Below are positions 2,058 to 52,851 of a stretch of DNA of 64,000 bases, in pieces. Position numbers and translations under genes: made by a program. The stretch's first letter is position 1; each line of letters begins with the position of its first letter. Origin of the DNA: a virus; IMG/VR virus record IMGVR_UViG_3300037071_003688; one strand, 5' to 3'. A model generated the notes under the pieces. That model had not been told where the DNA came from. It was given only the letters and a program-made list of their open reading frames with translations, and searched no databases.

Positions 2058-2478
2058 CGCGCCGCGTGATCCGATTGCTGAACAGGACGAAGCCGCCCGG
2101 GTGTTCCTCGAACGCACCGGCCGCAAGTCGACCGACCCGGCGCCGCCCGGCATCCTCCACATGCGGATCACCCCGACCGCCGTGTTCGGCCGCTTCCCCG
2201 GCGGCACCGACCCTCGCGCCGCTGTCCATGCCGTGTTCTCCGAGATGTTCGAGGGCACGTTCGAGGAGGTCCCCGCCAGCGGCTACGCCCGCAAGGGCCA
2301 GAGCAAGTACCCGGACGCCATCGAGGCTGACGTGATTGAAGACGACACTGACTCGGAAGAATCGGGTCGCTGGCGGACGGAGGACGCGCCTCCCGATGGG
2401 AAGTGGACCGTGTCCTACGAGATCTGCGCGGAGGATGACCCAGGACCGGATGACCGCGGTGTAACTTCACCCGGGTAA
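2050..2478 (+). CDS. hypothetical protein
   Basis: Coupled ORF with phage-like codon usage. Confidence 0.5.
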   Translation: MSDAPRDPIAEQDEAARVFLERTGRKSTDPAPPGILHMRITPTAVFGRFPGGTDPRAAVHAVFSEMFEGTFEEVPASGYARKGQSKYPDAIEADVIEDDTDSEESGRWRTEDAPPDGKWTVSYEICAEDDPGPDDRGVTSPG

Positions 2479-2528
2479 CTCGGATCCATCTCTACCCGGC
2501 TGACAACGGCGCCTGCGGAAACCTGCGG

Positions 2529-3578
2529 ATGCGCTGGCCCGGCGAACTCGCGCGAGCCGCCGGATACGACGTGACGGTGTTCGAGCCGGGGCCGATGAAC
2601 TCGATGCCGGTGATGGTCGGCCTCGACCATCGAGGAGTCCCGCAGGCGAAGCTGACCGGCGAGATCGACTTCGACGTGGTCGTGTTCCAACGTCCGCTGG
2701 CGTGGCGCAACGTGTTCGCCATCCAACTCCTGCAACGCAACGGGGTGCGCTGCGTGGTCGAACTCGATGACGACCTGGCCTCGGTCCACGCCCAACATGA
2801 CGCGTTCGCCTATCTCAACCCGGCCACCCACCCGGAAGCCAACTCGCAGCACCTCGCGCGTTGCTGTATGCACGCCGACGCCGTGGTGGTCACCACACCG
2901 GCCCTGGCGCGTGCCTACGGGCAGAAACGGGCCGTGGTGGTCGAGAACCACATCCCACGCCGCTACCTCGCCGTAGAGGCCGACAGGGATCCGGATCTGG
3001 TCAGGATCGGTTGGACCGGCAAGATCGGCTCGCACGCCGGTGACCTCAACGTCCTGCAAGGCGCTATGTCGACGGTGCTGCGTTCGGAACCATCAGCGCG
3101 TCTGTGCGTGCTGGGCGACAACACCGGCGTCGACCGGGTGCTCGGCCTGCCGGATCCGCCTGAGCTTGTCGTCGGTGTCGGCATGGACCGCTACCCGTAC
3201 GAGGTCGCCCGCTTCGACATCGGCATCGCACCATTGGCCGACACGATGTTCAACCGCTCGAAGTCGTGGCTCAAACCGCTCGACTACGCCGCCACCGGCG
3301 TCCCGTTCGTGTGCTCCGGAACCGACGAGTACAAACGCTTCACCGCGCAGGGTTGCGGCAACATCGCCGAACGCTCCCGACAATGGGTCAGCGCGCTGCG
3401 CCGCCTCATCCAGTCACCATCGCTGCGCGCCGAGCAAGCCGAAGCGGGACGCGAAGTCGCGGCCCGGTGGGTGATGGAAGACCACGTCGACCGCTACGTC
3501 GAGGCGTGGGCCGGAACTTGTGTCGCCGGGACGCGCGATACTGCTGCACCGATGGCAACGACAGAGAGGACACCATGA
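2529..3578 (+). CDS. glycosyltransferase (GT-B/GT4-like)
   Basis: DVVVFQR, VVELDDDL, ADAVVVTT, IGWTG...H, DIGIAPL..FNRSKSWLK..DYAATGVP motifs. The open frame extends upstream to 2475 (RIHLYPADNGACGNLR) without a canonical start. Confidence 0.85.
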   Translation: MRWPGELARAAGYDVTVFEPGPMNSMPVMVGLDHRGVPQAKLTGEIDFDVVVFQRPLAWRNVFAIQLLQRNGVRCVVELDDDLASVHAQHDAFAYLNPATHPEANSQHLARCCMHADAVVVTTPALARAYGQKRAVVVENHIPRRYLAVEADRDPDLVRIGWTGKIGSHAGDLNVLQGAMSTVLRSEPSARLCVLGDNTGVDRVLGLPDPPELVVGVGMDRYPYEVARFDIGIAPLADTMFNRSKSWLKPLDYAATGVPFVCSGTDEYKRFTAQGCGNIAERSRQWVSALRRLIQSPSLRAEQAEAGREVAARWVMEDHVDRYVEAWAGTCVAGTRDTAAPMATTERTP

Positions 3579-3979
3579 CAGACGAACTGCAACCACCCGA
3601 GGAGGAGTCCGCGTTCATCCGCTGGCTCCGCGAGCACCTCGACGGCGAGATGCTGGCCGAACTCGATGACGGCATCAAAGAGATCGCCGCCGCCACCGCG
3701 ATCAGCGGACGCAAGACGTCGATGACGCTCGACATTGGCATCGACCAGAAGGGTCGGACGTTGGTCGTCAAGGCTGATGTCAAGGTGAAGATCCCGCCGC
3801 CCCCACGCGACCCTGACATCTTCTACGCCGACCGCGACGGCGGTCTGTTCCGTGAGGATCCGACGCGACCGAAGCTCGACTTCTCGAACGTCGTCCAACT
3901 TGCCGAGGAGCCACGCCGGATCGACACCGAGACCGGCGAGATCAAGACCATCAACGACCAGACCGGAGATCCGCAATGA
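3575..3979 (+). CDS. conserved phage protein (YfdP-like partner of DUF2303)
   Basis: GAGAGG RBS; MTLDIGID...KVKIP...IFYADRDGGLFREDP pattern; sits directly before DUF2303. Confidence 0.65.
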   Translation: MTDELQPPEEESAFIRWLREHLDGEMLAELDDGIKEIAAATAISGRKTSMTLDIGIDQKGRTLVVKADVKVKIPPPPRDPDIFYADRDGGLFREDPTRPKLDFSNVVQLAEEPRRIDTETGEIKTINDQTGDPQ

Positions 3980-4812
3980 GCGGCGAAGTACAGGCACTCA
4001 TCAACGCACTCGCCCAGGACGCGGCGGTCGACACACGGCTGCGCGAGCCGGGCGAACTGTCGGAGCGGGCGATCCCGCCCGGCTGGCAGGTGCTCTACAC
4101 CGACAACGAGCGGCTGCTCGACAACCCGCGCCGCGCCCTCGGTGAGGTCAAGGTCCGCTCCGCCAAGGGCTTCATCGACGCCGTCAAGCAACGCTGGCCT
4201 GCGGGCACCCCGGATGATCCGGCGAAGACGGTCACGATCTACGCCGACGACGCCCACCAGACATTGATCGCGATCCTCAACGACGATCTCGGTTCGACGG
4301 CCGGATGGCGTGACCATCGCGTCGCGCTCGACGTGTCCAAGACCGAGGAGTGGAAGCACTGGATGTCACACCAGGGGATGAAGTCGCAGGAAGCATTCGC
4401 GGAGGCGATCGAGTTGGGCCAGTTGGAGATCACCGACCCATCCCCGGCGCTGATGCTGCGCATCGCCGAGACGTTCGAGGCGACGGTCGGCGTGACGTTC
4501 AAGAAAGGCGCCCAGGTCCGCGACGGCGCCCAGCAGTACGTGTACGAGGAGACCATCGACGCCAAGGCTGCCGGTGGCACCGTTGAAGTCCCGGAGGGCT
4601 TCACGATCACCGTGGCGCCGTACATCGGTAGCCCCCGCTACGTCGTCAAGGCCCGACTCAAGACCCGGCTCGTGTCCGGCAAGTTCACCATCGGCTACGT
4701 GTTGGAGCGCCCCGAGGAAGTCGAACGGGCAGCGTTCCGTGACATCGCCACTCAGGTCGCGACCGATCTCAACCTGACAGCGATCGAAGGGGTCGCTCCA
4801 CCCCCGCGGTGA
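3976..4812 (+). CDS. DUF2303 (YfdQ-like) protein
   Basis: GWRDHRVAL...EEWKHW...SQEAFAEAIE...VPEGFTITVAPY..ARL motifs. Confidence 0.8.
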   Translation: MSGEVQALINALAQDAAVDTRLREPGELSERAIPPGWQVLYTDNERLLDNPRRALGEVKVRSAKGFIDAVKQRWPAGTPDDPAKTVTIYADDAHQTLIAILNDDLGSTAGWRDHRVALDVSKTEEWKHWMSHQGMKSQEAFAEAIELGQLEITDPSPALMLRIAETFEATVGVTFKKGAQVRDGAQQYVYEETIDAKAAGGTVEVPEGFTITVAPYIGSPRYVVKARLKTRLVSGKFTIGYVLERPEEVERAAFRDIATQVATDLNLTAIEGVAPPPR

Positions 4813-4815
4813 ATC

Positions 4816-5133
4816 ATGTCGCTGCCTCACCTGCGGGTCTACGACCTCATCACCGAGGCCGACTTCCAACGAGCCACAGTCGAGCGCGCCACGCTCTACG
4901 GATGGTGGGTGTGGCACGACAACGACTCGCGACGTAACGACTCGGGTCTGCCGGATCTCATCATGGTCCGACCGCCCCGGGTTGTGTTCGCCGAACTCAA
5001 GACCGAGAAGGGTCGCGTGTCGGTCGTGCAACGCGCCGTGATCGCGATGCTCAAGGGCTGCCCCGGTGTCGAGGCGTACCTTTGGCGACCATCCGACGAA
5101 CGGGCACTCGACGCCGCGCTCCGACCGGAGTAG
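4816..5133 (+). CDS. VRR-NUC domain nuclease
   Basis: TEADFQ..., GLPDLIMV...FAELKTEKGRVS..Q, LWRPSD. Confidence 0.85.
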   Translation: MSLPHLRVYDLITEADFQRATVERATLYGWWVWHDNDSRRNDSGLPDLIMVRPPRVVFAELKTEKGRVSVVQRAVIAMLKGCPGVEAYLWRPSDERALDAALRPE

Positions 5134-5275
5134 CGTCCAGAGTTCCGTACATGTAAGACCCCCGGCGATCCGCATCAACGCTGCCCTGCAATCTGCGGAC
5201 CCCCGGGGGTCGGTTATCCCTGTTGAAGGATGAGATGAACGATAACAGCAAACGACACGCGTGTCACTTGGCGCC

Positions 5276-6022
5276 ATGAAGATCCGCCGCACCGAGTTCG
5301 CGATGGTCCCGACGTGGGTGATTCTGCACGAGGAGATGCGCGGGCACGGCACGAGGATCGCGACGTACGTCGCGCTCAGGGTGATCGCGTTCGAGTTCCC
5401 CGACTACGAGTGGACGTCGGAGCGAGAGATCGCAGAGTCAGCGGCCCGCGTCGCCGGATGCGGCTCCGAAGCGTGTCGCAAACACATGCGTGCGATGCGT
5501 GCCGCCGGGATCGTGACCGGCGACCACGGCGAGATCGTCCTCCCGCACGACCCGCCTGACCAGGTTGGGGACGCCGGTGGGGACACAGGTCCCCACGTGG
5601 GGACACAGGTACCCAATCGTGGGGACACACGTCCCCAGACACCTCTTATAGAAGACGCGTTAGAAAACCCTCCTCCTACAGAGGAGTCGTTGGGTACGGC
5701 GGGGGCCGATCCGAAGGCCGACGCGAGAGCCGCGGCAACAGGGTTCTTCGACCGCGTCAAGCACGACACCGGCAAGTCGCCGGTCGGGATCAAGTTCATG
5801 GCGCTCGCCAAACTCATCGAACCGTTCCTGCGCGCCGGGTACACCATGCCCGAGGTCAAACGCGCGGTGTGGACCGTGTACACCGAACGGCGACCGTGGT
5901 CGCTCGCGGTGATCGAGCAACACCTCGACGGCCGCATCGCGCCCGGCGCCCGGATCGGCAAGCAACTCGACGCGCTACAGGCCGCGATCAACGCCGAGAA
6001 CTGTCGCCTCGATAGTGCATGA
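5276..6022 (+). CDS. phage replication initiator-like protein (N-terminal wHTH)
   Basis: FAMVPTWVI...TYVAL...EIAE...MRAAGIV N-terminus; internal iterons; helicase-loader-like gene nearby. Confidence 0.65.
   Translation: MKIRRTEFAMVPTWVILHEEMRGHGTRIATYVALRVIAFEFPDYEWTSEREIAESAARVAGCGSEACRKHMRAMRAAGIVTGDHGEIVLPHDPPDQVGDAGGDTGPHVGTQVPNRGDTRPQTPLIEDALENPPPTEESLGTAGADPKADARAAATGFFDRVKHDTGKSPVGIKFMALAKLIEPFLRAGYTMPEVKRAVWTVYTERRPWSLAVIEQHLDGRIAPGARIGKQLDALQAAINAENCRLDSA
5565..5640. repeat. iteron-like repeats, candidate replication origin
   Basis: GTGGGGACAC at 5577, 5597 and 5619, TTGGGGACGC at 5565, inverted GTCCCCA copies, then a locally AT-richer tract (5645-5667). Confidence 0.7.
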
Positions 6023-7738: not shown

Positions 7739-8145
7739 AAGTTCATATCTTTCGACACGTCGCCCCCGACAAGATCGACATCGGCGACGTCGTGTTGTGG
7801 GACAACGACGACCCGATCGAAGTCGAGTCGATCACCCGCACCAAGGACGGCTACGACCTGACGGGCCACTCGCGCCACAAGCCGGGCCTCCGGGCGGTCA
7901 CCATGAAGCCGCGGGACTCACTCATCCGTGTGATCCCGAACCGGAGCGAGGCCGAGAAGATCTTGGCGGAACTCAAGAAAGCTGTCACGGACAGCGACCC
8001 GGCGACGTGGAACGTCGAACTGATCAACGATCTCAAGCCGCTCGTCATCCGCGGCAAGGCGAGCGAGTTGGCCAAGGTCACGACGGCCACCACGGGCGAG
8101 AAGGTCACGGTCGGCGATCCCGTCAACGATGCCCCTGTTTCGTAG
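7735..8145 (+). CDS. hypothetical protein
   Basis: ATGA-coupled ORF. Confidence 0.55.
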   Translation: MKVHIFRHVAPDKIDIGDVVLWDNDDPIEVESITRTKDGYDLTGHSRHKPGLRAVTMKPRDSLIRVIPNRSEAEKILAELKKAVTDSDPATWNVELINDLKPLVIRGKASELAKVTTATTGEKVTVGDPVNDAPVS

Positions 8146-8446
8146 GCGCCCGACCACCATCGAGGCCCGCCAGTTCACCGGCGGTGCCGAGTCGGCGACA
8201 CCGATCATCGACTGGGTGCTCGCCGGTGGCGGCACGGCGACATGGATGGAGGCACACCAGGTCGGGATCGCCCCGTACCGACCCGACGACATCAACGAGA
8301 TCGTCGTGATGGAACGGATCTCGCTGCGCACCCTCGAAGGCACGATCTACGTGTCGGTCGGCGACTGGGTGATCAAGGGGACCGCAGGCGAGTTCTATCC
8401 GTGCAAACCCGAGATCTTCGCTGACGTCTACGAGCCACTCGAATGA
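8129..8446 (+). CDS. widespread small phage protein (TLEG...GDWVIKG..GEFYPCKP family)
   Basis: Characteristic RRPTTIEARQF...RTLEG...GDWVIKGTAGEFYPCKPEIF motif. Confidence 0.75.
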   Translation: MPLFRRRPTTIEARQFTGGAESATPIIDWVLAGGGTATWMEAHQVGIAPYRPDDINEIVVMERISLRTLEGTIYVSVGDWVIKGTAGEFYPCKPEIFADVYEPLE

Positions 8447-40833: not shown

Positions 40834-41674
40834 ACCGCGGCCAAGTCGTGCTGCGCGTCGACGTGGGCGGTCCCCCGATCGAATACTTCGCCGACCAGGT
40901 CACTCGGGTCGTCGCCTACAACCCGTCGAGTCTCGACGCGTTCGAGTTCGTCAAGGACCCGGACGAGTACGTCTGGACGTTCGAGTCGGATGGTCGCGAC
41001 ATCTTCGTGGAGGAAGTCCTCGTCTACATCGACGGCACCGACCTGTTCACCCGCCACCCGGTGAACACCGAGTTCAACGCCCGGCTCACCATCGACCTGC
41101 GCACCCAAGGCGTCCACAAGGGCACGTCGCCCCGAGTCGATCGGATCAAGGGATGATCGAACGCATCAAGGTCGACGCCCTGCGCACAGTCCACCCGGGC
41201 GGACGCATCGAGATCACCCCGATCATCTTCGACGCGGACGGCGCAGCCGAGTGCTACGAACCGGCCACCGGCGGACCGCCATACGACCTCGGATACCTGG
41301 ACTACCTCATCAAGCTCAACCGCGACTGGGCCGACGCCCCGCCGTACACCGCCGACACCATCGCCTGGATGGAAGCATTGAGAGCGATGGTCGTGGATCA
41401 CCAAGCTGGTCGACTGTGAAGATCCGACTGACGTGGCCCGCCGAGCCACACACCCGCTACGCCCAGTCCGCATTCGACGCGCAGGTCGGCAAACTCATCA
41501 AGCTCAACGTCGAAGGCATCGACACACCGTTCCCCGCCATACTGCGAGCGGCGACTGTCGGCGAGAACGGCCACGCCGCCGAGTTCGAGTTCGAGATCGA
41601 AGACCCGGCCGCGTGCGTCGTGCTGTCCGCCTACGTCGCCACCGGCGCAGTCAACAACCTCTCCATCGTGAACG

Positions 41675-50034: not shown

Positions 50035-50064
50035 TTGACTCCCGATCGGTCCAAGGTTTACGGT
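50035..50064 (+). promoter_or_regulatory. promoter for the RNA array/Ro60 operon
   Basis: TTGACT-18-TACGGT, followed by a 5' hairpin at 50073-50119. Confidence 0.55.
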
Positions 50065-50140
50065 GTCCCCTCGTCCGGTCAGGCAGGTGACCTCCGCGGG
50101 GATCTGAGTCTGGCCGGACAACTTGACAACTTAAGATCTC

Positions 50141-50221
50141 GTGTGCCCGGTGCGTAGGTGACGGTTACTTCTCCCTTTACATGGAAACCAAGCTCCGTTG
50201 CCGTCTGGTTCTCGGGCACAC
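50141..50221 (+). ncRNA. Y-RNA-like unit 1
   Basis: Closing stem GTGTGCCCG/CGGGCACAC; GGTGCGTAGGTGACGGTTACTTC...CCGTTGCCGTCTGGTTCTC scaffold. Confidence 0.7.
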
Positions 50222-50232
50222 TGCACCATCGT

Positions 50233-50387
50233 TTCCGGCTGGTGCGCAGATGAGGGTTCCTTCGCATATGGAGCGGGTAGTCACAGGTTCGAGTCCTGTT
50301 CACGCCACCAGGCCCGCAAGGGTCGGTGTGATAGCTCAGTTGGCAGAGCGCCAAACAGTCCCCTTGTTGATCGGTTCTCAGCCGGAA
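50233..50387 (+). ncRNA. Y-RNA-like unit 2 (YrlA-like, circularly permuted tRNA domain)
   Basis: Stem TTCCGGCTG/CAGCCGGAA. T-arm ACAGG-TTCGAGT-CCTGT, TCACGCC-ACCA, GCAA linker hairpin, GGTGTGA, D-arm TAGCTCAGTTGGCAGAGC. Confidence 0.85.
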
Positions 50388-50394
50388 CACACCC

Positions 50395-50512
50395 TTTCCG
50401 GGTGGTGCGCTGATGATGGCTACTTCGCAAGTTCGATTCTTGTCATCCCCACCACATGGGGATGTGGGCATGGCGCCCGCACTGCCTTCGCCGCCTGGTT
50501 CTCACCCGGAAA
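50395..50512 (+). ncRNA. Y-RNA-like unit 3 (permuted tRNA domain)
   Basis: Stem TTTCCGGGTG/CACCCGGAAA. T-arm GCAAG-TTCGATT-CTTGT, CATCCCC-ACCA-CAT-GGGGATG acceptor hairpin, short D-like arm. Confidence 0.8.
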
Positions 50513-50519
50513 CGATCTC

Positions 50520-50619
50520 TCTGGTCGGTGCGCAGATGGGAGTTACTTCAACGGATGAAACGGCTTCGGCCGTCGTGGCTCGAAACCACAAGCCTCCCGC
50601 CGCCAGGTTCTCGACCAGA
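50520..50619 (+). ncRNA. Y-RNA-like unit 4
   Basis: Stem TCTGGTCG/CGACCAGA; scaffold motifs; cargo ACGGC-TTCG-GCCGT and GTGG-CTCGAAA-CCAC. Confidence 0.75.
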
Positions 50620-50628
50620 AAACTCGAC

Positions 50629-50749
50629 CCTGCCCGGTGCGCAGATGACGGATACTTCCTTCACACATGCAGAAGGTCCCCGGAGCGGCGGTAACCAATC
50701 CGTGCCAGCTTGGGAACCAGTCCCCGTTGTCGCTCGGTTCTCGGGCAGG
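50629..50749 (+). ncRNA. Y-RNA-like unit 5
   Basis: Stem CCTGCCCG/CGGGCAGG; GGTGCGCAGATGACGGATACTTC...CCGTTGTCGCTCGGTTCTC. Confidence 0.75.
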
Positions 50750-50760
50750 ACTTCCGCATC

Positions 50761-50853
50761 TGCGGTGCGATGACAGAGGTTCCTTCTCACCAGGGCGCAA
50801 GCCCACGAATGCCGGAACGAGAGACCGGCGCCCTCCGTCGCCTGGTTCTCGCA
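50761..50853 (+). ncRNA. Y-RNA-like unit 6
   Basis: Short stem TGCG/CGCA; GGTGCGATGACAGAGGTTCCTTC...CCTCCGTCGCCTGGTTCTC. Confidence 0.65.
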
Positions 50854-50907
50854 ACCAACCAATGACCCCAACGACCCAATGACCCAACCCTGAAAGGGGC
50901 AACGACC

Positions 50908-52521
50908 ATGAGCAAGTTCGCTCAAACCGCCACGACCGCCCGCCCGCAGGGGCCGCTGCACACCCTCCCCGGTGTTCAGACGCGCACCCACGAGGGCGGT
51001 CTCGGCTTCGTCAAGGACGCCCGCACCGAACTGTTCTCGCTCGGCGTCGCGAACTTCGTCGCCGAAGACACGTACTACGAGAAGGCCGGTGTCCGCGACA
51101 AGCGGTTCACGGATCTCGTGCGCGAGGTCACGGCACTCGACCCGGACTGGGTCGCGCACTTCATTCCGTGGCTCCGCCAGGAAGCGAACATGCGCACCGC
51201 TTCGGTGGTCGCCGCCATCGAGTACGCCCGCGCCGCTCCCGGCACGAACGGCCGCGCAGTGATCGCGCAGACGCTCACGCGCGCCGACGAACCAGCCGAG
51301 GCGCTCGCCTACTGGATGTCGCTCTACGGCCGCAAGATCCCCAAGGCCGTCAAGCGCGGCATCGCCGACGCCGTCGTCAAGCTGTACACGCAGAACGCCG
51401 CCATGAAGTACGACTCGCGCGACGCCAAGATGCGGATGGGTGACGTGATCGACCTCGTCCACCCCAACCCGCACGACGCGCTCCGCTACTGGGAGCAGGA
51501 CGACATGGGCATGTCGGACAGCGACGTGGAACTCCTCAAGGACCGCGTCGTGGAGCGCAAGCGCGCCCTGTTCCAGTACCTCCTCGACAAGCGCCACGGC
51601 CGCGACAACCCGCGCGGCCTCGACCGGCTCGGCAAGATCTCGGCCCGCAAGGACGCGATCAAGGCCGCGGCCGAGGGCGGCGAGTTGGACGTGACGACGG
51701 GCATGACGTGGGAGACCGCGTTGTCGCTCGGCGGCTCGAACGCGGAGACGTGGCAGAAGGTCATCCCGCAGATGGGCTACATGGCTCTGCTGCGCAACCT
51801 GCGCAACTTCGAGGACGCCAAGCTGCCCGCCAACGTCCTCATGCAGGTCGCGTCGACGCTGGCCGACCCCGAGCAGGTCGCCAAGTCGCGCCAGTTCCCG
51901 TTCCGGTTCCTGTCGGCGTGGTCGGCGTCCGGCTCGATGATGTGGGGTCAGGCGCTCGAACTCGCGCTCGAAGCGTCGTGCGCCAACATCCCCGAGTTCC
52001 CGGGCAAGACGCTGATCATGGTCGACGTGTCGGGTTCGATGGACGGCAAGATGTCGGCCAAGTCGACGGTGTCGCGCAAGGTCGCCGGTGCCGTATTCGG
52101 CGCGGCCGTGATGAAGCGGTCGGCTCCCGGCTCGAAGCTCGGCGTGTACGCCACGCTGTGCGCCGTGCAGGACAAGCCACGCTCGGTCCTGCGCACCGCC
52201 GAGGAGATCGGCAAGCTGTCGGGCGTCGGCGGTCACGGCACGAACACGTGGCCATCGACGTGGATGCTGTGGCAGGAGTACGGCCCATTCGACCGGATCC
52301 TCATCTTCACCGACGAGCAGCACCACCCATCGCACATCACGGCCGGTTCGTTCCCCAAGGACGTCCCGATCTACGTGTGGTGCCTGGGCGGCTACCGTCC
52401 GGCGTCGCTCGACCTCGGCACGGGCCGCTACCTGCTCGCCGGTCTCAACGACCAGTGCTTCAAGCTGATCAAGATCCTCGAAGCCGGGTCCGAGGGACGC
52501 TGGCCGTGGGAGGTCGACTGA
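50908..52521 (+). CDS. rsr: Ro60/Rsr-like TROVE + vWA RNA-binding protein
   Basis: THEGG.GF..D...ELF, EDTYYE, WLRQEANMR, RADEPAE, KIPKAVKRGIADA, KYD, MGYMALLRNLRNF, KSRQFPFRFLSA; vWA MIDAS DVSGSM, GT and FTDEQ. Confidence 0.95.
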   Translation: MSKFAQTATTARPQGPLHTLPGVQTRTHEGGLGFVKDARTELFSLGVANFVAEDTYYEKAGVRDKRFTDLVREVTALDPDWVAHFIPWLRQEANMRTASVVAAIEYARAAPGTNGRAVIAQTLTRADEPAEALAYWMSLYGRKIPKAVKRGIADAVVKLYTQNAAMKYDSRDAKMRMGDVIDLVHPNPHDALRYWEQDDMGMSDSDVELLKDRVVERKRALFQYLLDKRHGRDNPRGLDRLGKISARKDAIKAAAEGGELDVTTGMTWETALSLGGSNAETWQKVIPQMGYMALLRNLRNFEDAKLPANVLMQVASTLADPEQVAKSRQFPFRFLSAWSASGSMMWGQALELALEASCANIPEFPGKTLIMVDVSGSMDGKMSAKSTVSRKVAGAVFGAAVMKRSAPGSKLGVYATLCAVQDKPRSVLRTAEEIGKLSGVGGHGTNTWPSTWMLWQEYGPFDRILIFTDEQHHPSHITAGSFPKDVPIYVWCLGGYRPASLDLGTGRYLLAGLNDQCFKLIKILEAGSEGRWPWEVD

Positions 52522-52524
52522 GCC

Positions 52525-52851
52525 GTGGCTCAGTTCGCGATTCCGAGTCGGGACCGCGAGACCATCTACATCGAAGGTGAACTCCTCGGCGAAGCCTCAT
52601 CGAGGGAACCAGGCAAACCTCGATGGGGCGAGTACCGGCTATTCCGGCTGACTCTCGGCGGGGGCTACGTCCTCGCCGGGGTCGGCCGCTCCTCGATCGC
52701 GGGCGAGGTCGACCGACCGTGGTTCAAGCCCTGCGAGACAGAGGATGCTGTCGTGCGCGCGTTGCTGTACGAGAGACGCCCGGGTGTGTGGGTGCTGCCA
52801 CCATCCGGGCGTCTGCTATTGGAACGGGCCGGGCTGTCAGCGCCCGACTAG
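52525..52851 (+). CDS. hypothetical protein co-oriented with the Ro60 gene
   Basis: GTG 3 nt after the Ro60 stop; GELLGEASS...RW.EYRLFR...GGYVL..VGRS. Confidence 0.6.
   Translation: MAQFAIPSRDRETIYIEGELLGEASSREPGKPRWGEYRLFRLTLGGGYVLAGVGRSSIAGEVDRPWFKPCETEDAVVRALLYERRPGVWVLPPSGRLLLERAGLSAPD

Follow-up and report, generated by a model that had tools for sequence, protein, structure and literature searches.

Ro60 proteins and Y RNAs have been known for decades, and the role of the variable part of the Y RNA is still largely open. To our knowledge, the studies performed so far have each covered only one or two such RNAs in a given bacterium or phage. Here, we describe a locus in a viral DNA stretch of 64,000 nucleotides (nt; IMG/VR virus record IMGVR_UViG_3300037071_003688, the whole stretch being called the window), in which a tandem array of six Y-RNA-like units stands in front of a phage gene for Ro60. 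With a probability of about 0.85 this locus represents six Y RNA genes followed by the gene of a phage Ro60, which together form a polycistronic cluster. The transcription and processing of this cluster, the binding of its RNAs to Ro60 and their partners are what we infer.

In the literature searched, the described Y RNAs amount to one or two per bacterium or phage, plus four small RNAs upstream of the rsr gene of Deinococcus (PMC4201824, PMC12135203). The system of Mycobacterium smegmatis, compared here by its published description, consists of Rsr with the RNAs YrlA and YrlB (PMC4201824). As in the window, the RNAs are encoded immediately before the protein gene (rsr) and in the same orientation, and a shorter second unit adjoins a long one. 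In both cases the long unit mimics a permuted tRNA whose acceptor stem has 7 bp, and a CGAA-type motif is found in the 5' strand. YrlA of M. smegmatis is cut by RNase P and CCA-tailed (PMC4201824). In contrast to the six units of the window, two RNAs have been described for M. smegmatis; furthermore, three inserts of the window belong neither to the tRNA-like nor to the short type, and the CCA is encoded in window units 2 and 3.

Among phages, YrlA has been published for the mycobacteriophage ET08, a Bixzunavirus like Bxz1 (PMC4201824). The gp220 protein of Bxz1 resembles the present case as a phage TROVE protein with a YrlA-type RNA upstream, but the handle of this RNA, i.e., the stem that carries the insert, is a variant which by eye reads GCCGA ... 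CGGUUAYC in the 5' strand and CCAUGUCU in the 3' strand. It seems that different lineages of Ro60 go with different handles. Also by eye, three tandem Y-like units precede gp220 in the Bxz1 genome (AY129337.1, locus L175, about 4846-5195), and the YrlA core is present in the middle one only.

The Thermus phage phiLo harbors the nearest Ro60 of solved structure (9KOP, 9L5Y), likewise with Y-like RNAs upstream (PMC12135203). This Ro60 binds the two upstream RNAs, Yrl1 and Yrl2, and, together with them, the PNPase of the host (PMC12135203). It differs from the system of the window in the number of RNAs, in an unrelated handle and in a protein which is only distantly similar, with about 28% identity to the window Ro60. 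In Deinococcus radiodurans several small RNAs, among them Yrn1 and Yrn2, lie upstream of rsr as well (PMC4201824). Unit 1 of the window and the consensus of the Rfam family Deinococcus_Y_RNA (RF01053) have CGGUUACUUCUCC in common, but the match reaches just 15.8 bits (E 9.2) and stays below the gathering score of 80; moreover, Yrn1 has another order of the tRNA-like arms (PMC4201824).

The array of the window extends from 50141 to 50853 and lies, like every window feature given below, on the plus strand. It consists of units of 81, 155, 118, 100, 121 and 93 nt, which are separated by spacers of 7-12 nt, and these lengths fit the about 80-150 nt of Y RNAs. A repeat search detected a 26-nt 5' block in six copies with a 3' block in register, and RNAfold folds all six units into a closing stem, an internal loop and an inner helix with a variable insert on top. 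From the outside to the inside, the scaffold displays a unit-specific closing stem, the pairs G-C, U.U, G.U and C-G, an internal loop of 3 nt against 5 nt, in which the CG(N)A motif sits, an 8-bp inner helix and finally N-U(A/C)CUUC. In an alignment of the six units (A1) over the 19 pairs of this scaffold, 93% of the cells are paired and 10 of the 19 pairs show double-sided change. The covariation score was matched by none of 500 shuffles, and sliding the 3' partner by 1-3 columns as a control lowered the pairing to 40-53%. A covariance model built from these six units alone (R1) recovered them from the 64-kb window with 72-86 bits, along with one further match of 17.6 bits. The latter, at 40862-40920, was discarded, as it lies inside a coding region and has the string AUACUUC alone in common with the units.

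The region of the array is noncoding. Gene callers leave the gap of 850-880 nt empty in three relatives, and the length differences among the units are not multiples of three, which supports this view. Directly after the array, 54 nt past unit 6, the Ro60 gene starts (50908-52521), preceded by the ribosome-binding site GAAAGGGG at 50892-50899. Its open reading frame (ORF) matches Pfam TROVE (E 4e-19) as well as PHROG 850, annotated as 'RNA-binding protein' (E 5e-40), and has phiLo Ro60 as the best relative among solved structures (E 3e-32). Both the TROVE and the vWA half align to phiLo Ro60, including the DVSGS motif of the vWA metal site, so that the protein is a Ro60 with its two domains, TROVE (a ring of HEAT repeats) and, behind it, vWA with a metal site of the DxSxS form. 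To the 'Ro-like RNA binding protein' of actinophages the identity amounts to 35-38%. Taken together, the six units, which the initial annotation had listed at these places, are confirmed by sequence, repeat search, RNAfold and R1, and its statement that Ro60 directly follows the array holds with a gap of 54 nt. The shared stem with compensatory changes that it had proposed is upheld as well, with a correction for unit 3, whose inner helix was missing from its list and has two mismatches, and for unit 6, whose inner helix contains an A.C mismatch.

A rival explanation, according to which the units are decayed tRNA genes or repeats without function, can draw on the pieces of T- and D-arms that are present though ARAGORN finds no tRNA in the window. 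This explanation is opposed by the compensatory changes in both helices, by the conservation of the six-unit array and of its order in two relatives and by the scaffold being found next to Ro60 at well above 100 loci. Because of the covariation, decay products are excluded, and the probability left to them is negligible. The window units were also considered as tRNA genes and rejected: ARAGORN calls none of them (0 tRNA genes in the window), and the sole Rfam tRNA match, with 20.2 bits, spans two units.

The covariance model from the six units, a search which the initial annotation had suggested, was applied to TROVE neighborhoods. At 80 actinobacterial rsr loci it detected 169 units, all of them on the rsr strand and nearly all within a few hundred bases 5' of rsr. 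Six units each were found in L001 and L002, the two metagenomic relatives closest to the window (Ro60 81-82% identical), and four to eight in more distant phage contigs, some of which are low in G+C. In cultured actinophages the first pass with R1 revealed one to three units, and more were obtained with a broader model (R2) built from 44 units. R2 detected 329 units across 93 sources of phage and metagenomic origin. For the 44 units, which come from 12 loci, 92.7% of the cells are paired and 238 double-change cells were counted, pair counts that are somewhat inflated as the alignment (A2) was fitted to the model; again none of 500 shuffles reached the score, and with a slid partner 39-50% of the cells are paired. 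Thus, the scaffold recurs beside Ro60 and its covariation holds.

The wider set also reveals which positions are fixed. Invariant throughout the 44 units are G8, G11, the last inner G-C pair and, behind the helix, U-CUUC, and G11 is paired with a conserved U (G.U) in 43 of them. The motif CGAA has been published for recognizing Ro sites (PMC4201824, PMC12135203). Of the 44 units, 17 have CGAAG in their 5' strand, and the window units read CG(C/U/A)(A/U)G, which is a variant of the published motif and not an exact copy. Upstream of rsr and in the cultured actinophages, the handle has the form G-G/A-U-G-C/U-G, an inner helix ending in G, and N-UACUUC ... GGUUCUC or GAUCUC. As is characteristic for Y RNAs, the units share a strand with a Ro60 orthologue from which they are no more than a few kb apart, and their ends pair into a long stem with a CGAA-type internal loop, here in its variant form. 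To judge from its sequence, the handle is the stem that actinobacterial Y RNAs commonly have. It is not new, because the same handle is present at the 80 actinobacterial rsr loci and in cultured actinophages and because CGAAG occurs in 17 of the 44 units. The suggestion of the initial annotation that the handle might represent a new class does not hold in the light of these data. Its remark that the conserved motif differs from the Ro-site consensus of Y RNAs is right for the animal consensus.

As to the way in which relatives were obtained, single-protein searches in viral and metagenome contigs gave no match, while alignment-based scans succeeded. No near-identical phage is present in INPHARED, and a distant DNA search yielded one match of 54 nt, in the D-arm region. 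Seven metagenome loci that were retrieved with a DNA pattern of unit 1 as candidate phage relatives proved to be bacterial-type rsr loci.

Besides the inflated pair counts of A2, several observations weigh against the assignment of the locus to Y RNAs and Ro60. The inner helix of unit 3 contains two mismatches (A.C and U.U), and the closing stem of unit 6 is weak and short (UGCG/CGCA), its innermost pair being the G-C pair common to all units. Unit 2 stays below the gathering score of the Rfam family YrlA (RF02553), with 32.3 against 69 bits. Furthermore, the scaffold model has no match in phiLo, i.e., in Yrl1 or Yrl2, or in Bxz1, the phage systems nearest to experiment. Because phiLo and Bxz1 stay undetected, the link to proven Ro60 binding has three supports, namely the architecture, a motif that resembles CGAA and the fact that the actinobacterial loci belong to the M. 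smegmatis type.

The threshold of RF02553 deserves a closer look. Unit 2 matches the Rfam YrlA model with 32.3 bits (E 6e-5) over model positions 24-84 at 50276-50352, and Bxz1, used as a control, matches the same model positions with 32.5 bits. Since these scores are equal, unit 2 is as good a YrlA as the RNA of Bxz1. The gathering score of YrlA was reached at none of 15 actinobacterial rsr loci and at none of 12 phage loci. The threshold therefore excludes a whole branch, because the Bxz1 control as well as all of these 15 rsr and 12 phage loci fall below it. At gathering thresholds, Rfam gives no match in the window. A full match to a described family, which the initial annotation had named as an outcome that would remove the novelty, was not found; nothing passes at gathering and the YrlA core scores 32.3 bits. 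The units are missed by current annotation, and Rfam annotates none of them. In cultured phages, some such RNAs are labelled as tRNA or as small hypothetical proteins.

Above the common handle, the six RNAs differ. Unit 1 (50141-50221; R1 77.3 bits) folds in RNAfold as a short Y RNA, which consists of the handle and an open loop of about 25 nt with UACUUC, a pyrimidine-rich stretch and GGAAACC. With position 1 of L001 and L002 it shares 85-89% identity. Its class, of about 75-80 nt with an open loop, a pyrimidine-rich start and GAAA inside, is the commonest one, and the style of its loop matches the units of about 75 nt beside rsr in Streptomyces and many others.

Unit 2 (50233-50387; R1 76.5 bits, RNAfold) is a YrlA-type Y RNA and as such a circularly permuted tRNA mimic. 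Here, a T-arm (50283-50299) is followed by the 3' acceptor strand of 7 nt with ACCA (50300-50310), a linker hairpin capped by GCAA and then the 5' acceptor strand with the D-arm (50325-50349), between which UA is placed. These parts stand in exact tRNA spacing, and the Ro stem occupies the place of the anticodon arm. Unit 3 (50395-50512; R1 80.1 bits) carries a mimic of T-arm and acceptor plus a small hairpin. Its T-arm (50427-50443) is directly followed by an acceptor-like stem of 7 bp with the loop ACCACAU (50444-50464), and Rfam gives weak matches to tmRNA_permuted and tRNA. In the orthologues of L001 and L002 the T-arm and the stem are kept and the ACCA is lost. Thus, the locus contains at least one RNA with a tRNA-like domain, as known from Y RNAs, namely unit 2, and in addition unit 3 with its T-arm and 7-bp stem. 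A unit with T- and D-arms followed by a unit with a T-arm is a pair that recurs in L001, L002, L004 and L005. Among the units found by a pattern scan, three insert classes can be distinguished, those with T- and D-arms (about 140 nt), those with the T-arm only and those with neither, and the same three occur everywhere.

The two modules that mimic a tRNA body would fit a second rival explanation, which takes up the idea of decoys from the initial annotation. According to this, the array is a library of decoys, whose modules mainly soak up or misdirect host defence nucleases and toxins that cleave tRNA or rRNA, while Ro60 stabilizes or delivers them; the units would still be Y RNAs. However, the tRNA mimics are devoid of the anticodon arm, where most known tRNA-directed defence nucleases cut. 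A simple decoy for anticodon nucleases is disfavored, because the Ro stem replaces the anticodon arm in these mimics. Moreover, the short and the YrlA types are equally found in bacterial chromosomes, where a role in anti-defence does not suggest itself.

The remaining three units are of other kinds. Unit 4 (50520-50619; R1 72 bits) displays three short hairpins in RNAfold, one with a UUCG loop and one T-arm-like with CUCGAAA. Unit 5 (50629-50749; R1 85.8 bits, RNAfold) has a two-hairpin insert, in which GCGGTAA (50688-50694) and GTGCCAGC (50702-50709) are present. In unit 6 (50761-50853), a GGGC-GCAA-GCCC hairpin (50793-50804) is combined with a hairpin with the loop AACGAGAGA and a short closing stem; it scores 84.7 bits with R1 and 50.0 bits with R2, the latter at 50757-50857. 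The second hairpin, followed by CCGG, lies within 50811-50829. GCGGTAA and GTGCCAGC of unit 5 and the loop AACGAGAGA with CCGG of unit 6 resemble the 530 loop of the 16S and the sarcin-ricin loop of the 23S rRNA, respectively, and such rRNA-like strings would be welcome in a decoy library. On the contrary, the strings comprise 7-12 nt, Rfam finds no rRNA match in the window at E values up to 10, and the orthologues in L001 and L002 have not retained these strings.

A comparison of the window with L001 and L002 reveals how the inserts turn over. Positions 1-3 are orthologous in all three, with 76-90% identity. At position 4, the window and L001 are 90% identical, and L002 has the same closing stem with another inner helix and another insert, which contains a true T-arm. 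At position 5, the window and L002 are 84% identical and L001 has a different unit of 72 nt, and at position 6 L001 and L002 are alike (75%) while the window holds another insert. The constant handle with swapped inserts, as put forward in the initial annotation, is therefore borne out: positions 4, 5 and 6 differ among the three and the handles stay. The type of insert seen in unit 6, in which a GCAA hairpin is followed by a hairpin with the loop ACGAGA, is also present in the unrelated L159 (2679-2802), where the stem sequence differs, and seven loci of the bacterial type (L176-L182) combine the handle of unit 1 with a complete tRNA-like insert. Due to the turnover at positions 4-6, the recurrence in L159 and this combination, it is fair to speak of a constant scaffold with swapped cargo. 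The conserved strands of the handle that flank the inserts would be plausible points of recombination.

For the inserts of units 1, 4 and 5 no convincing match was found outside L001 and L002. A 15-nt match of unit 5 in L122 was rejected, as it lies outside any recognized unit, and so was the string ACGAGAUA in L110, which is part of a YrlA variable region and not a hairpin loop. Since the inserts of positions 4-6 turn over between phages with about 80% identical Ro60, as an arms race predicts, the exchange agrees with a library of decoys too.

The size of the arrays also distinguishes phages. In the pattern scan, which is a lower bound as it detects 4 of the 6 window units, 80 bacterial loci contained 0-4 units, most often one, and 80 IMG/VR loci up to 7. 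With R2, 5-8 units were detected at L004, L005/L094, L107, L140, L105, L139 and L165. That phage arrays are longer than bacterial ones would be expected from decoys, as would be the position of the Ro60 gene and the units within tRNA gene arrays in cultured actinophages and the enclosure of a tRNA gene by one array (L005, 2887-2962). In view of the arguments on both sides, a role mainly as decoys appears unlikely, though of the alternatives to our preferred reading it has the most to recommend it. Neither the array size nor the additional insert classes nor the insert turnover were found in Rfam or in the literature searched, the supplement of PMC4201824, which might list multi-unit loci, being outside this search. 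The Ro60/Y RNA system with a standard actinobacterial handle is known; new are the size of the array, the additional insert classes and the cassette-like turnover.

Several of the cultured phages carry such units under other labels or without any. In Arthrobacter phage Atuin (OK040794.2, L010) at least six unannotated Y-like units are located at 2445-5331 between annotated tRNA genes, on both sides of the Ro-like gene 111. In Streptomyces phage GiJojo (PP725410.1, L009), four units at 2412-2911 precede the Ro-like gene (gene 30). Gene 29 of GiJojo, annotated as tRNA-Arg(cct) (locus positions 2769-2843), with which ARAGORN agrees, is the 5' half of a YrlA-type unit (2763-2911); this region contains the 5' strand of the handle, UUACUUC and the T-arm, and the Rfam tRNA model is silent at threshold. 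The tRNA-Arg(cct) is probably a misannotation. In Gordonia phage Neville (NC_060131.1, L011), model matches at 2506-2636, 2643-2719 and 2728-2877 overlap the 'hypothetical protein' genes 88, 89 and 90 before the Ro-like gene, and these ORFs may be Y RNA genes that were called as proteins. In L005, a phage contig of low G+C, the tRNA gene mentioned above (Rfam, 52 bits) lies between two units of an eight-unit array, and its Y RNAs and tRNAs probably originate from one transcript.

Upstream of the array, a promoter-like element was identified by reading the sequence, TTGACT-N18-TACGGT at 50035-50064, whose function would be that of a promoter. It is unique in the window, and its -35 and TAnnnT pattern is kept in L001 (TACTGT) and L002 (TATCGT), with variation only at the free -10 positions. 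A generic scan for sigma-70 promoters and terminators found neither. Of the single promoter that had been proposed in front of the array, the sequence match stands, being conserved in two relatives, and its function stays putative, the generic scan being silent. Between this element and unit 1, RNAfold predicts a leader hairpin (50073-50119, -28.1 kcal/mol), which is present in L001; it is probably dispensable, because it is absent in L002. A conserved box, CTTGACAACT(T/A)AAGATCTC at 50122-50140, abuts unit 1. It occurs once in the window and is shared with L001 and L002 except for one T/A position, and it is a candidate for a second promoter or a processing signal. Downstream of unit 6, before the ribosome-binding site, a C/A-rich direct repeat of 17 nt with the core CCAATGACCC occurs in two copies (50852-50885) and is largely kept in L001 and L002.

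Since no terminator-like site lies before the start codon and the gap is 54 nt, the array and Ro60 probably form one transcript. Such a common transcript would also be in line with a third explanation, in which the array is mainly a structured 5' untranslated region for the autoregulation of Ro60 and does not give rise to free small RNAs. An autoregulatory leader fits poorly, because in other phages the units are found downstream of Ro60, or tRNA genes or ORFs lie in between, as in L140, L122, L165, L010 and L004. In addition, YrlA and YrlB of bacteria exist as free RNAs to which Rsr binds (PMC4201824). Autoregulation would not need six different inserts either, and this explanation is considered very improbable.

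For a cluster of six Y RNA genes and Ro60, the following mechanism can be proposed. The array and Ro60 would be transcribed together from the promoter-like element at 50035, and the transcript would be cut to unit length in the spacers of 7-12 nt. The 5' and 3' ends of each RNA would pair into the stem for docking to Ro60, and the module would differ from RNA to RNA: an open loop in unit 1, a permuted tRNA body in unit 2, a minihelix of T-arm and acceptor in unit 3 and other sets of hairpins in units 4-6. Each unit would bind one Ro60 ring by its handle, which would result in six kinds of Ro60 particles engaging different host factors. For the loop-type units, PNPase is a candidate partner by analogy with Deinococcus, Salmonella and Thermus phage phiLo. 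For the tRNA mimics, enzymes that handle tRNA may be partners, by analogy with YrlA of Salmonella and M. smegmatis.

A more far-reaching idea, offered as a speculation with small chances of being right, is that phage Ro60 works with a library of exchangeable adaptor RNAs. Here, cassettes would be swapped by recombination at the handles and would quickly renew mimics, such as tRNA bodies and perhaps rRNA loops like the sarcin-ricin-like one of unit 6, in order to trap or redirect RNA-targeting immunity or RNA-decay enzymes of the host. If true, Ro60 with Y RNA would be a programmable platform for counter-defence.

Independent of this, the locus and its relatives combine one docking stem with many modules, of which phages keep 5-8 together and close relatives exchange some. 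They represent a natural series of RNAs with the same handle and different cargo, which can be used to ask what the cargo does. Cultured phages with such arrays (Atuin, GiJojo and a further Streptomyces phage, BRock) make this question testable at the bench.

Directly 3' of Ro60, an ORF of 108 amino acids is located at 52525-52851, for which no Pfam or PHROG family was found. It is kept in this position in L001 (88%), L002 (75%) and L006/L007 (40%), and not in the other loci examined. It possibly belongs to the Ro60 operon, and its conservation in place would allow for a lineage-specific partner of Ro60. Genes for RNA repair, PNPase or ligase are absent within about 6 kb. In one relative (L008), a gene with an Acb2/Tad1-type hairpin domain, which belongs to a family of anti-defence sponges (Pfam PF24729), lies about 2.4 kb downstream of Ro60 at 7940-8176.

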